Assembly: GCA_963748625.1 (NCBI GenBank)
Contig: CAVVJT010000010.1
Coordinates: 192,001 to 256,000 of the forward strand
DNA: 64,000 bases
Reading direction: 5' to 3'
Source: an uncultured Chloroflexia bacterium
GTDB taxonomy: Bacteria; Chloroflexota; Limnocylindria; Limnocylindrales; CSP1-4
Shown: piece by piece, positions 49,094 to 55,026 of the stretch
Position numbering within the stretch: the first letter of the stretch is position 1
Layout of the letters: each line of letters starts with the position of its first letter
Made by a program: the position numbers and the translations under genes
The notes under the pieces: generated by a model
Database searches by the model: none
What the model was told of the DNA's origin: nothing
Seen by the model: only the letters and a program-made list of their open reading frames with translations

Positions 49094-49783
49094 CTAGCTG
49101 ATGACCACGAGCAGGTCACCGATCTCGATATTGACCCCGACGGCCACCCCCACGCGCTCAATCGTGCCATCCCTCGGCGCCCTGAGCTCGTTCTGCATCT
49201 TCATGGCCTCGACCACCAGGAGCTGCTGGCCTGCTTCGACCTGGTCGCCAGGCTTCACCGACACCGCCACCACCTTGCCCGGGATGATGGCCTTGATCTG
49301 CAGCGGCCCCGCATGGCCTACCACCCCACGGCCTCGGGTCGCACGTTCCCGCAGCGCCGCGATGCGCTCGGACTCCGTGTCGACCGGGACGCGGAACCCG
49401 CCGACCAGGACCTCCCGTACCCGGGTCCCCCCTTCCCCGACCGTCTCAGCCTCAAGCACCACCCGGGTGGTCGCGCCGCCCGCCTTGAGCAGATGCCGAC
49501 CACCGCCGAGCGGGTGGAGCGCGACGTCTGCCTGCTCGCCGTCAACGATCACCTGTCTTTGCGCAAGGACAGCGGCGGCATCCTCGGACGCTGGGTGCAT
49601 GGCAGCCCCGCCGAGCAGGCCCGTGCCGACGGTCGGATTGGTCATCCGCAACGGCTCGGGAGCTGGCGCAATGCGGAGCTCCTCGCCGCCGCCGACGGCA
49701 TCGGCCAGGCGGACGCGGACGGACCTCGGGTCAACGGGTGCAGCGGCCCGGCTCTCCGGCGCGGGTCTGGTCAACTCGGCCAT
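49094..49783 (-). CDS. Biotin carboxyl carrier protein with N-terminal extension
   Basis: EAMKM biotinylation motif. Confidence 0.9.
49555..49570. promoter_or_regulatory. Palindrome copy 1 (candidate parS)
   Basis: GTCTTTGCGCAAGGAC inside the BCCP gene. Confidence 0.65.
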
Positions 49784-51345
49784 CGGTTCGCTCCATGGGC
49801 ACGTCTGCTCGACCGCCATCCGCCTGCCGGCTGGTGGCCCGGCGGCCGCATATCCGCGCCGCTCGACGCGAGCCCGGTGATGGACTGCGGCGCATCGAGC
49901 GCGGCCAGGCCGGCCGCCAGCAGCGCCGACCGTTCCGCCGCGCGACGCGCGCCATCACCGTCCCAGTGCATGTCCACCCAGCCAGTCGACAGGTCGCCAC
50001 GGCGGAAGGCATCGCTGCGTGCAACGAACATGTGGAATGGGAGCGTCGTCTGGATCCCTCCGATCTCCACTTCGTCGAGCGCACGTCGGAGGCGGTCGAT
50101 GCACGCATCCCGGTCAGGCGCGTGGACCATCAGCTTGGCGACCAGGTTGTCGTACTCGGCCGGGATGCGATCGCCGGCTTCGATGTGCGTGTCGATCCTG
50201 ACGCCGGGTCCAGCCGGCATCACCCAGCGACCGACCTGCCCGGGTCCTGGCGCAAACGCGCGGGACGGATCCTCTGCGGCGAGCCGGACCTCGATCGCGT
50301 GTCCGACCGGCGTGGCGGCACGCTCCCCCGCCGCGACAACCTCCTTCGCCAGCGGCATCCCCGCCGCGATGCGCAGCTGCTCACGCACGATGTCCACCCC
50401 GGCGACGAGCTCCGTCACTCCATGCTCCACCTGGAGGCGCGTGTTGACTTCGAGGAACCAGAAGTTGCCATCGGGGTCATACAGGAACTCGCAGGTCGCC
50501 GCATTGCGCAGCGAGGCCGCCTTGCCCAAGGTCACCGCCAGCCCGTGAAGGTACCGGCGCTGCTCCGTGGTGAGCCCCGGCGCGGGAGCTTCCTCCACCA
50601 GCTTCTGGTGACGGCGCTGCAGCGAGCAGTCACGCTCGCCCAGCGCGACGACGTTGCCCTGGCCATCGGCGAGGAGCTGCACCTCGATGTGGCGTGCCGG
50701 CAGGATCTCGCGCTCCAGGTACACCGAGCCATCGCCGAACGCGGAGAGTGCCTCGCGTGACCCGGACAACAGCGCCGCCGGCAGGTCCTCCTCGCGCGTG
50801 ACGCGACGCATCCCACGACCACCACCCCCCGCGGCGGCCTTGACGAGCATGGGGAAGCCGATCGCGCGTGCCGTCTCAAGGATCGCCACCACCTGGTCCG
50901 GCGCGTCAACCGGCGCAGGCTCCAGCGTCCCGGGCACGGATGGCACGCCGACCTGTGCCGCGAGCCGACGCGCATGCAGCTTGTCCCCCAGCATCTCGAT
51001 CGCATCGGATGCCGGCCCGACGAAGACGATGCCCGCAGCCTCTGCGGCGCGGGCGAACGCCGCGCGCTCCGCCAGGAAGCCATAGCCGGGATGGATCGCG
51101 TCCGCTCCCGTCGCAACAGCCGCATCGATGATCGCGTCGATCCGCAGGTAGCTCTCGGACGGGGAGGAAGGGCCAAGCCGAACGGCTGCATCGGCAAGTC
51201 GGACATGCGCTGCCGTCGCATCGGCGTCGCTGTAGACCGCGACGGCCTCAATGCCCAGCTCATGGCACGCGCGGATGATGCGGACCGCGATCTCGCCGCG
51301 ATTGGCGATGAGGACGCGCCGGAACGGAGGTGCCTCGCTGGTCAT
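49771..51345 (-). CDS. Biotin carboxylase subunit of acyl-CoA carboxylase
   Basis: ANRGEIA, HPGYGFLAE, GGGGRGMR, RDCSLQRRHQK, EVNTRLQVEH. Confidence 0.95.
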   Translation of the reverse strand: MTSEAPPFRRVLIANRGEIAVRIIRACHELGIEAVAVYSDADATAAHVRLADAAVRLGPSSPSESYLRIDAIIDAAVATGADAIHPGYGFLAERAAFARAAEAAGIVFVGPASDAIEMLGDKLHARRLAAQVGVPSVPGTLEPAPVDAPDQVVAILETARAIGFPMLVKAAAGGGGRGMRRVTREEDLPAALLSGSREALSAFGDGSVYLEREILPARHIEVQLLADGQGNVVALGERDCSLQRRHQKLVEEAPAPGLTTEQRRYLHGLAVTLGKAASLRNAATCEFLYDPDGNFWFLEVNTRLQVEHGVTELVAGVDIVREQLRIAAGMPLAKEVVAAGERAATPVGHAIEVRLAAEDPSRAFAPGPGQVGRWVMPAGPGVRIDTHIEAGDRIPAEYDNLVAKLMVHAPDRDACIDRLRRALDEVEIGGIQTTLPFHMFVARSDAFRRGDLSTGWVDMHWDGDGARRAAERSALLAAGLAALDAPQSITGLASSGADMRPPGHQPAGGWRSSRRAHGANRWPS

Positions 51346-51365
51346 CGGTGGCTCCCCGGCAGGTC

Positions 51366-51381
51366 GTCTTTACGCAAAGAC
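51366..51381. promoter_or_regulatory. Palindrome copy 2 (candidate parS)
   Basis: GTCTTTACGCAAAGAC, intergenic. Confidence 0.7.
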
Positions 51382-51393
51382 AGGAGGCCGTGG

Positions 51394-52995: not shown

Positions 52996-53104
52996 GTGGG
53001 GACTGCGCAGATCATAGGCCTCGGAGCGCGCGACTGCGGGCGCCATCGTGTGAGTGGGGTGTTTCCGGCGGGTTGCCAGACTGCCAACCTTGCGTGCGCG
53101 TGGG

Positions 53105-53151
53105 CGTGGATATCCACAGAACGGTGCACAAGTCCCCTCGGATGTGGACAA
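53105..53151. promoter_or_regulatory. Cluster of DnaA-box-like 9-mers
   Basis: TTGTCCACA (minus, 53143-53151), ATATCCACA (53110-53118), TTGTGCACC (minus, 53123-53131), ATATCCACG (minus, 53105-53113). Confidence 0.6.
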
Positions 53152-53243
53152 CCTCGGACGCGGATCATCGCGGCGCGGTAGCATGCGACGAACTCCAGTC
53201 GCCATTCCGGTGGCCATACCAGCGCTCATCCGAGGTGATGCCC

Positions 53244-54014
53244 TTGACGCACGTGATCGCGATCGCCAACCAGAAGGGTGGCGTCGGCAAGACGACGACC
53301 GCCATCAACCTGGCGGGCGCACTCGCCGAGACGGGCCTGCGCGTCCTGCTTGTGGACATGGATCCGCAGGCGAATCTCACGGCGGGCGTCGGCATCAACC
53401 TCAACACGATCCAGCGCTCGATGGCCGATGTGCTCGCGGACGGCCGCTGCACCCTGGAGGAGGCCATCCTTCCCACCGAGACCGCGGGCATCGACGTCGC
53501 GCCCGCCCACATCGACCTGGCCAGTACGGAGGGCGAGCTCTTCACGGCGCTCGGACGCGAGGCGATCCTCCGGGAGGCGATGCGCGACACGATCGACTCG
53601 TACGACTACGTCCTGATCGACTGCCCGCCCAACCTCGGGCTGCTGACGGTGAACGGGCTCGTGTCCGCGGACAGCGTCATCATCCCGGTCCAGACGCAGT
53701 TCTACGCCATGAAGGGCCTGAACAACCTGGTGAAGGTCATCAACGCGATCCGGCTCAAGCTCAATCGCGACCTGCGCGTCCTGGGCCTGCTGCCCACCTT
53801 CTTCGACGGACGCACCAACCTCGCCAAGGACATGCTCGATGAGCTGCGCGTCGTCGGCGACCATCACGTCTTCAGCACGATCATCCGCACATCCGTGAAG
53901 CTCGGCGAGGCTCCCCTCGCCGGTCGACCCATCACCGCCTACGCGAGCGGCTCAGAGGCCGCTCGTACGTATCGCGAGCTCGCCAGGGAGGTGATCGATC
54001 TTGGCCAGGCCTGA
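53244..54014 (+). CDS. parA: ParA/Soj ATPase
   Basis: [10 protein letters not shown] deviant Walker A, DMDPQAN, IDCPP; TTG start after GAGGTG (alternative ATG 53238). Confidence 0.96.
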
Positions 54015-55026
54015 CTTCCGCGCCGCAGCCGCTCGCCGGCTATCGGAGGAGAAGGAGCTACCGCCCGCGATCGTCAGCCTCCTCTCGCCCGACTCGACCC
54101 ACCGCTCCACCGGCGTCAAGGTGATCCCCGTCGAGCGCATCGACTCCAATCCTGAGCAGCCGCGCCTCGCATTCGACGAGGCCACGCTCGAGGAGCTCGC
54201 TTCGAGCATCCGCGAGCATGGAGTACTTCAGCCGATCCTCGTCCGACCCGTCGATGGCGGACGCTACCAGTTGATCGCCGGCGAGCGACGCTGGCGCGCC
54301 AGCAAACTCGCCAGCATGCGAACCATCCCGGCGCTGGTCGAGGACATCGACGACGAGACCGCCATGGAGATCTCGATCATCGAGAACCTCCAGCGCGAGG
54401 ACATCTCCCCTCTCGATGAGGCGGCGATGTACGACCGGATGATCCGCGACCACGGGTACAGCATCCGCAAGCTTGCCGAGAAGCTCGGCAAGGACAAGGG
54501 CTACCTCGAGAACCGCCTGCGGCTGGCCGACGCGCCGCCCGAGGTTCGTGAACTCGTGTCTTTGCGCAAGGACACCCTGTCCCACGCCTACGAGCTCATG
54601 AAGGTCGAGGACCCCAAGAAGCGCCGCCGCCTGGCCGAACAGGTCGGCCGGGGCGAGCTCTCGCTGGTCAAGCTCCGGGAGCGGATCGAGGGCAGACGCA
54701 CCCGGGAGGCCCAGGAGGTCGACGAGCAGATCGAGGCGGCAGCGAAGGCAGATCCGGTCGCCGCCGTCGCGCCCTCACCTGCAGCCGAGGCCGGCTGGAC
54801 GCAGCACACCGCCCCGGCCGATGACGTGAAGGACGACAGCCTCTACGTTGCCAAGCAGCAGCTCAATGAGGCGGTCGAGGAGATGCTCGAGGTGATCCGC
54901 AACCCTGAGCTGCTCTCGACGATCGGGAACGTGGACCGCACGAACCTGGCCAAGTACCTCACGATCGCGAAGCTCCGCCTGGAGAACGCGATCGCCGTGG
55001 TCCGCAGCGGGGATCCAGACCGCTAG
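54001..55026 (+). CDS. parB: ParB/Spo0J CTPase partition protein
   Basis: [31 protein letters not shown]. Confidence 0.96.
54558..54573. promoter_or_regulatory. Palindrome copy 4 (candidate parS, inside parB)
   Basis: GTCTTTGCGCAAGGAC, identical to copy 1. Confidence 0.65.

Follow-up and report, generated by a model that had tools for sequence, protein, structure and literature searches.

How many centromere-like loci can one bacterial chromosome carry, and how would they be told apart? The question is raised by a 64,000-nucleotide stretch of DNA (hereafter the window) from an uncultured bacterium of the Chloroflexota class Limnocylindria, corresponding to C10:192001-256000 of a 4.63-Mb, 10-contig assembly of ~71% G+C, in which four copies of a palindrome surround a pair of partition genes, parA and parB, next to genes of propionyl-CoA metabolism. 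A sequence-only reading of the window had taken this motif for the parS of the lineage, in a non-canonical form. As described below, the four repeats are instead likely to be parS-like sites that belong to a second ParABS system, located in mid-replichore, whose binding to them is deduced from comparisons of sequence.

A rare palindrome surrounds a parAB pair

The sites and genes concerned are arranged as follows (window coordinates), with the pair in the window named ParA2/ParB2 and another pair, found on contig C7, ParA1/ParB1.

47388-49082, minus strand: methylmalonyl-CoA mutase gene (mcm; Pfam MM_CoA_mutase)
49094-49819, minus strand: biotin-carrier protein (BCCP) gene, 241 aa (Pfam Biotin_lipoyl)
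49555..49570: parS2-like site d, GTCTTTGCGCAAGGAC, inside the BCCP open reading frame
49771-51345, minus strand: biotin carboxylase gene (Pfam CPSase_L_D2/Biotin_carb)
51366..51381: parS2-like site a, GTCTTTACGCAAAGAC, between the pccB stop (51394) and the biotin-carboxylase start (51345)
51394-52947, minus strand: carboxyltransferase gene pccB (Pfam Carboxyl_trans)
52980..52995: parS2-like site b, GTCTTTACGCAAAGAC, in the divergent intergenic region between the pccB start (52947) and parA2 (53238)
53110-53118 and 53143-53151: inverted DnaA-box-like 9-mers, ATATCCACA then TGTGGACAA, upstream of parA2
53238-54014, plus strand: parA2, 258 aa (Pfam AAA_31, 1e-63, CbiA and ParA; KGGVGKT)
54001-55026, plus strand: parB2, 341 aa (Pfam ParB_N, 1e-36, and HTH_ParB, 1.2e-17)
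54558..54573: parS2-like site c, GTCTTTGCGCAAGGAC, inside parB2, codons V186-D191

The degenerate pattern GTCTTTRCGCAARGAC matches the window four times (49555, 51366, 52980 and 54558), against a mean of 0.00 in 100 dinucleotide-preserving shuffles of the same DNA, and no site is added by allowing up to three mismatches from the perfect palindrome GTCTTTGCGCAAAGAC. The repeats are real and highly non-random, and their number, their confinement to these four positions and their placement, with 49555 in the BCCP gene, 54558 in parB and the other two copies intergenic, are as the sequence-only reading had given them. Its description of a 16-bp palindrome needs amending: the copies are palindromic, but each is one base off GTCTTTGCGCAAAGAC and the element is longer. 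Among 64 sites from 23 loci, chosen at up to two mismatches (a selection that constrains some of these figures without forcing the one-perfect-half pattern), each has at least one perfect half GTCTTTGC, half-site positions 1-3 and 6 are invariant, and the site is flanked without exception by a 5' pyrimidine, mirrored by a purine (Y...R). The element is therefore an 18-bp palindrome, YGTCTTTGCGCAAAGACR, and its perfect half and fixed flank are an architecture typical for a dimeric helix-turn-helix (HTH) protein.

Across the whole genome, GTCTTTRCGCAARGAC has five exact matches, the four of the window and one at C4:160074, and the reversed-pattern control has none. The fifth copy (C4:160074-160089) lies within a gene for a DEAD-box helicase of the MrfA/Hrq1 type and has no counterpart in five relatives assembled as single contigs. 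A pair of near-motif matches on C2 (186990 and 187031) was dropped, as it belongs to another palindrome, ACTTGCG-N6-CGCAAGT, two copies of which stand 41 bp apart at C2:186985-187050, upstream of a thioredoxin-like open reading frame, and overlap the motif by chance. A reading of the repeats as RNA hairpins was rejected because the asymmetric variants face either way with respect to transcription, so that what would be a U-G pair in one copy would be a C-A mismatch in a copy facing the other way; a search of 49000-56000 against Rfam had no match at E<=1. Across site d, third-position G+C of the BCCP reading frame stays at 0.7-0.85.

Two Par systems in one genome

No canonical parS (TGTTNCACGTGNAACA) is present in the window at up to three mismatches, as the sequence-only reading had noted, and the motif shares no register with that sequence. 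Its further claim, that the motif is the parS of the lineage, does not hold, because the genome keeps two near-canonical parS elsewhere: on C7, two copies of TGTTTCACGTGCAACA (1111860 and 1111916), each one base off TGTTNCACGTGNAACA, lie 200-260 bp upstream of parA1, and the parA1-parB1 pair is 49 kb from the only dnaA. In relatives, where families of the class are designated f1 to f5, canonical parS is found in 15/24 genomes of the same genus and 7/16 f2 genomes, standing beside ParB1 in six of the 11 fetched ParB1 loci; the parAB of the window, by contrast, is not origin-proximal in the closed relatives, as a canonical parS locus would be.

Identity is 43% over 177 residues between ParB1 and ParB2, whose C-termini are unrelated, and 44% between ParA1 and ParA2. 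The two ParB genes share a contig in all five single-contig relatives and in two further assemblies, so that the 7.7% contamination estimate for the assembly does not explain the duplication. A ParB2-like match occurs in 298 of 301 sampled class genomes, and the per-genome count is two in the large majority (these class-wide tallies took in the unpublished genomes G319, G131, G277, G156, G190, G145, G139, G183, G102, G266 and G122, on none of which the locus-level statements rest). In a quick tree without outgroup, 11 ParB1 and 28 ParB2 sequences split at 100% support, with family-level groups inside each clade. The parAB of the window is a divergent paralogue pair, conserved across the class. 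Literature searches, with supplements outside their scope, found neither a second chromosomal ParABS in Chloroflexi nor a paper containing the motif string.

A parallel is offered by the replicon-specific ParABS systems of multipartite genomes, such as Vibrio cholerae ParAB2-parS2, in which a second orthogonal ParA/ParB pair with its own palindrome stands beside the canonical pair in one cell. Unlike in the multipartite Vibrio genomes, both systems share one chromosome in the five single-contig genomes, as well as one contig in the two further assemblies, the arrangement is class-wide, and no second initiator or origin is seen.

The sites are conserved with parAB2

In addition to the window, 27 parB2 loci were fetched, and 23 of the resulting set belong to families f1 and f4 (16 and 7, respectively). 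At up to two mismatches, site a is found by the pccB stop in 20/20 f1/f4 loci with pccB, site b in the gap between pccB or mcm and parA2 in 20 of the 23 loci (also in 3/3 loci where mcm, not pccB, abuts parA2), and site c at codons 186-191 in 18 of the 23 parB2 genes. Site d is confined to the genus, being present in 4/4 of its loci and in none of the 16 other loci with a BCCP match. The exact degenerate pattern is found in 23/24 relatives of the same genus and 0/16 f2 genomes; by family, it is found in 79/91 genomes of f1, 31/103 of f4, 1/92 of f3, 0/12 of f2 and 0/2 of f5, and the reversed control matches one genome of the 301.

The prediction that the motif would cluster near parAB in this genome and its relatives is borne out: in the five single-contig relatives, all 17 sites with up to two mismatches (4, 6, 3, 2 and 2) lie within 8 kb of parB2, and the reversed control yields 0, 1, 0, 0 and 0. 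One of these loci (L006, G210:C1) has six sites in 8 kb, including two extra copies, at 4974-4989 and 5014-5029, 40 bp apart and ~500 bp past the mcm stop.

The sister genus designated g5 separates the sites from the carboxylase genes. Its parB2 locus has no pcc genes, and the gene next to parA2 is mcm. Each of the five g5 genomes searched contains two sites and no more; the first lies upstream of parA2 and the second within parB2. At E<=1e-50, PccB had no match in any of these genomes (93-95% completeness); with the same query, tblastn recovered pccB from 20 loci. The sites are thus kept in g5 with no pccB found, and do not depend on pcc.

Inside parB2, the site is held at the level of DNA. 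In a codon alignment of the 23 f1/f4 genes (300 columns, mean third-position A/T 0.117), the two columns with the highest third-position A/T are the Ser (0.52) and Lys (0.61) codons of the site. Rare codons keep site c: TCT is used in 11/23 genes against a background of 1.8% of Ser codons, AAA in 14/23 against 4.6% of Lys codons, and TTG in 12/23 against 4.2% of Leu codons. The view of the sequence-only reading that the locus is a non-canonical centromere accordingly stands in so far as the motif is clustered at parAB, has intragenic copies under DNA-level selection and is nearly absent elsewhere; what falls is its identification as the parS of the lineage.

Outside f1 and f4 the picture changes. 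In f3 and f5, the best motif-like sites (one to three mismatches) directly follow the stop of a gene for an AddA/UvrD-PD(D/E)XK helicase-nuclease in 3/3 genomes (L033, G055:C4, 1462-6519; L034, 7957; L035, 7926). At three mismatches genome-wide counts equal the reversed control, and these sites are credible only because of their shared position and local clustering: the f3 genome G055 has four of them within 5 kb; par, pcc and mcm genes are absent from this locus, and the neighbours are a peptidase, a helicase and a major facilitator superfamily (MFS) transporter. A palindrome search around parAB2 in f2, f3 and f5 loci gave nothing recurrent. Two f2 genomes have in common a GTATTTGCGCAGATAC palindrome (G025:C1:168695 and G028:C2:63318), located elsewhere in both, which might be the f2 variant of the site.

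ParA2 and ParB2 are putative partition proteins, and ParB2 has changed specificity residues

The parA2 product is a ParA/Soj-type ATPase with a deviant Walker-A motif (KGGVGKT), and its stop overlaps the parB2 start; a parA2 orthologue adjoins parB2 in 26 of the 28 loci, the exceptions being two f2 loci. ParB2 consists of a region with a GERRWRA motif, which is invariant in 25/25 aligned orthologues, an HTH region that aligns without gaps with the DNA-binding domains of Noc and Spo0J, a disordered linker (233-274) and a helical C-terminal domain. Its closest PDB sequences are Noc and the ParB proteins of Myxococcus, Thermus and Caulobacter, with E values of 1e-39 to 1e-41 and Noc 7NG0 at the top (2.4e-41). 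The AlphaFold2 model (mean predicted local distance difference test score, pLDDT, 76.6), in which the N-terminal and HTH domains are well predicted, superposes on Caulobacter ParB-parS 6T1F with a template modelling (TM) score of 0.79 and also matches the folds of CTP/CDP-bound ParB structures, Noc and KorB. From sequence and model, ParB2 is predicted to be a ParB-family CTPase with the N-terminal CTP motif and the HTH of that family. The C-terminal domain, for which three helices are predicted at residues 280-336 (pLDDT ~87), shows neither a Pfam match nor similarity to the ParB1 C-terminus; it is present in f1 (15/15), f2 (2/2) and f4 (15/15) and in none of 268 genomes from other families of the phylum.

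According to Jalal et al. (2020, PMC7383237), four residues (173, 179, 184 and 201 in Caulobacter numbering) fix the preference for parS or for the Noc-binding site (NBS), the quartet being R/T/A/G in ParB and Q/K/K/R in Noc, with R at 173 invariable among parS-specific variants. Mapped through ungapped alignments to B. subtilis Noc and Spo0J and to ParB1, the ParB2 quartet is K/R/D/S (K166, R172, D177 and S194), with K and R in 28/28 and S in 27/28 ParB2 sequences of the class; in addition, E170 and Y197 of ParB2 correspond to A and R in ParB1. The ParB1 quartet is R/T/D/G, with G in 11/11 and R in 10/11 sequences. ParB1, which keeps the canonical specificity residues, is therefore equipped to read canonical parS, and ParB2, with its changed quartet, is unlikely to do so. 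The one ParB1 sequence of the 11 with Q in place of R at the position equivalent to Caulobacter R173 is the f5 orthologue (L045, G052:C56); no canonical parS was seen within the 4-kb L045 locus.

The locus lies in mid-arm, among genes of core metabolism

When single contigs are treated as closed circles and dnaA is taken as the origin marker, the distance between parB2 and dnaA is 0.367 of genome length in G006, 0.379 in G210, 0.396 in G184, 0.401 in G311 and 0.384 in G125. The locus thus lies 37-40% of the length from dnaA, on either side of it depending on the genome, and not near oriC, where the sequence-only reading had proposed to look for clustering; ParB1 is always 22-53 kb from dnaA. 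The neighbours of parAB2 belong to core metabolism (aconitase, sdh, icd, sucCD, mcm and pcc). A second origin or terminus at the locus was rejected, as neither GC skew nor gene-strand bias, both weak signals, switches at C10:245 kb.

Several further elements occupy the interval between pccB and parA2. The two inverted DnaA-box-like 9-mers are 33 bp apart, start to start; they enclose a conserved GGTGAACAA-like stretch and are followed, ~27 nt downstream, by a TAGCAT-like hexamer. Both 9-mers are present in 14/16 f1 loci and the downstream one in 7/7 f4 loci, and neither is present in three f3/f5 loci. The whole genome has 98 DnaA boxes with up to one mismatch, and no cluster of at least three per kb. 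The conservation of the pair suggests that parAB2 is under DnaA control. On the pccB side, an ATCATAG stretch (53011-53016, minus strand; TATGAT on the pccB strand) stands 15-25 nt from site b; it is kept in most f1 loci with pccB and absent from g5 loci without it. The TATGAT element is probably the -10 element of pccB, which would place site b within the early transcribed region; a scan of 51300-53300 with promoter and terminator consensus sequences gave no promoter and one terminator-like match, at chance level. By eye, a tRNA gene is recognised between pccB and parA2 in f4 (L020-L024, L030 and L031) and directly upstream of parA2 in f3/f5 (L027-L029), and is absent there in f1.

A candidate second centromere-like system

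On this evidence, YGTCTTTGCGCAAAGACR is the probable cognate nucleation site ('parS2') of ParB2, a putative cytidine triphosphate (CTP)-dependent DNA clamp encoded in the middle of the site cluster. By analogy with known ParB proteins, ParB2 dimers would recognise the palindrome through an HTH with specificity residues unlike those of canonical ParB, close as a CTP-bound clamp and slide onto the flanking DNA; one partition complex would be built over about 5-10 kb, and ParA2, a Soj-type ATPase presumed to be co-transcribed with ParB2, would act on it. Both the occupancy of the sites and the use of the complex are what we infer, and the system would be separate from the ParA1/ParB1-parS system near dnaA on the same chromosome. 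A locus 37-40% of the length from dnaA would mark a second, mid-replichore centromere-like locus, and since site a is next to the start of the biotin-carboxylase gene and site b next to that of pccB, loading of ParB2 may also dampen pcc transcription.

The system has much in common with chromosomal ParABS (Soj/Spo0J-parS of Caulobacter, Thermus, Bacillus and Myxococcus), in which a Soj-type ParA gene precedes one for a ParB with GERRxRA and HTH, a few 16-bp palindromes surround the par genes, one of them inside parB, and to which the best PDB sequence and fold matches of ParB2 belong. A dedicated parA beside parB and few, clustered palindromes are found here too, although the candidate sites of f3/f5 are not adjacent. 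It differs from that group in its site, which is unrelated to TGTTNCACGTGNAACA, in its quartet (K/R/D/S against R/T/A/G), in a ParB2 C-terminal domain with no detectable similarity to ParB1 or to a Pfam family, and in its mid-arm position and coexistence with a canonical system. Noc-NBS, the nucleoid occlusion system of Firmicutes, offers a second comparison, as Noc is a ParB paralogue altered at the same four positions and has a different 16-bp palindrome. NBS sites are scattered over the chromosome and Noc is not known to have a ParA partner; unlike them, the sites described here lie in one locus of at most 8 kb with a dedicated, co-transcribed parA2, so that they are neither dispersed nor devoid of a cognate ParA, and the quartet is K/R/D/S, not Q/K/K/R.

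We favour assignment of the sites to ParB2 because they are rare and clustered at parB2, conserved in the class, and track parAB2 and not pcc; because of codon-level selection, the dimeric-HTH form of the site, the ParB_N and HTH_ParB domains, GERRWRA motif and fold match of ParB2 and the changed quartet; and because the canonical system exists separately and ScfR-family regulators, discussed below, are not found above the Pfam cut-off in the 301 class genomes. A number of observations weigh on the other side. ParB2 is assigned to the sites by co-location and co-conservation, and no relative is known for its C-terminal domain. The parA2-parB2 pair of f3/f5 has no site within 6 kb, and in G044 a motif-like site is 47 kb from parB2. 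In the streamlined, 1.1-Mb genomes of f2 no site with up to two mismatches is seen, ParB2 stands beside mcm with no adjacent parA2 (L025 and L026), and the only ParA match is ParA1-like in 4/5 genomes, so that ParB2 must serve a purpose in f2 that does not require ParA2. A position in mid-arm is also unusual for a chromosomal parS. Finally, two sites have operator-like positions: the best-conserved one, site a, is 20 nt upstream of the biotin-carboxylase start, and site b stands between the conserved TATGAT-like hexamer and the pccB start.

The most far-reaching form of the proposal is that members of the class have two centromeres at work on one chromosome: a canonical, origin-proximal ParAB1-parS and, roughly three quarters along one replichore, an orthogonal ParAB2-parS2 whose parA2 is transcribed under DnaA-box control. 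ParAB2 would actively position or segregate the origin-distal half, or load SMC onto it, and ParB2 and its site would form a naturally orthogonal pair with a new recognition code, K/R/D/S. We regard this as possible rather than probable.

Alternative readings of the sites

ParB2 may additionally, or chiefly, act as a transcriptional regulator like KorB of plasmid RK2, a ParB-family CTPase whose operators (OB) lie in promoter regions. It is unlikely that this is its main use of the sites, as a repressor or insulator of pcc/mcm and of its own operon that does not segregate DNA. The promoter-proximal positions of a (5' end of the biotin-carboxylase gene) and b (5' end of pccB, downstream of the TATGAT-like hexamer) are what it would lead one to expect, as are the presence of site a at every f1/f4 locus with pccB and the persistence of ParB2 by mcm in f2, where parA2 is mostly not found; ParB2 also matches the KorB domain of Pfam weakly, at an E value of 5.6e-4 that does not reach the cut-off, and resembles KorB structures 8QA8/8QA9 in fold. 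Such a role fits poorly with the overlap of parA2 and parB2 in one operon (26/28 loci), with the retention of sites where pccB is not found, with the G055 cluster among unrelated genes, and with two of the four sites being intragenic and without obvious promoter logic. The setting, moreover, is chromosomal, unlike that of KorB, and the sequence similarity is much weaker: KorB is retrieved in the PDB search at E 1.7e-16, far from the 1e-41 of ParB and Noc.

The locus might also be what is left of an ancient secondary replicon after its fusion with the main chromosome, namely its partition module, with the sites as its old centromere, kept by inertia or co-opted. Orthogonal ParB/parS pairs are typical of secondary replicons, and the DnaA-box-like elements beside the sites and the distance of the locus from dnaA would suit such an origin. 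In fused Vibrio cholerae strains, both Par systems are reported to share one chromosome (PMC12219848, PMC3257285). Yet the neighbours are core metabolism genes, no replication-initiator gene is seen in the window, ParB2 has no close plasmid relative (the best are 43-48% identical, and 0 records cover >=80%), its family groups look vertically inherited in the tree without outgroup, and the weak signals of GC skew and strand bias do not switch at the locus. We hold this history to be rather improbable as an explanation in its own right; as a statement about origin, it is compatible with the assignment of the sites to ParB2.

Considerably harder to sustain is the idea that an unrelated transcription factor for propionyl-CoA/methylmalonyl-CoA genes uses the palindrome as its operator, and that parAB2 is close to it by synteny only. 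ScfR-family regulators (PrpR, PccR and RamB) bind TTTGCAAA palindromes at propionate genes (PMC6765138), and the core of the present motif, TTTGCGCAAA, resembles these: both are A/T-rich palindromes with a TTTGC...GCAAA core beside propionyl-CoA genes. Three of the four sites are indeed in or beside the mcm-BCCP-biotin carboxylase-pccB block (47388..52947, minus strand). The core is, however, two bases longer here and has conserved GTC/GAC arms, and the ScfR family (PF09856) is found above the Pfam cut-off in 0/301 class genomes, the genome of the window included, with control genomes detected as expected and two sub-threshold matches, both in f3. Nor is any regulator gene conserved at the locus, the 5/5 g5 genomes keep sites with no PccB found, and the copy inside parB2 is held by rare codons in 18/23 genes. 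The sequence-only reading had argued from that intragenic copy against a pcc operator; the operator is indeed weakened, with the sites kept in the five g5 genomes and motif-like sites at the pcc-free locus of G055.

That the motif is the only parS of the lineage, with the canonical sequence replaced, draws on the lack of a canonical parS in the 64-kb window (up to three mismatches) and deserves next to no credence, being contradicted by the two near-canonical parS upstream of parA1 on C7, 49 kb from dnaA, by the canonical parS of relatives (15/24 in the genus, 7/16 in f2, beside ParB1 in 6/11 loci) and by the canonical specificity residues that ParB1 retains.

Implications

Most parS sequences known to depart from the canonical one come from secondary replicons and plasmids. 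A review (PMC7333895) describes chromosomal ParABS as single and origin-proximal, with one nearly universal parS. Here, an orthogonal ParA/ParB/site triplet is found in mid-arm on the main chromosome, beside core metabolism and class-wide in a largely uncultured class. If the sites are the target of ParB2, recognition of GTCTTTGC by K/R/D/S would be a new solution in the specificity map of ParB and Noc, and the pair would add another orthogonal ParB/parS combination, of the kind used for labelling DNA loci. Binding of the sites by ParB2 would also make these bacteria a natural case in which to learn what a second centromere does on one chromosome.

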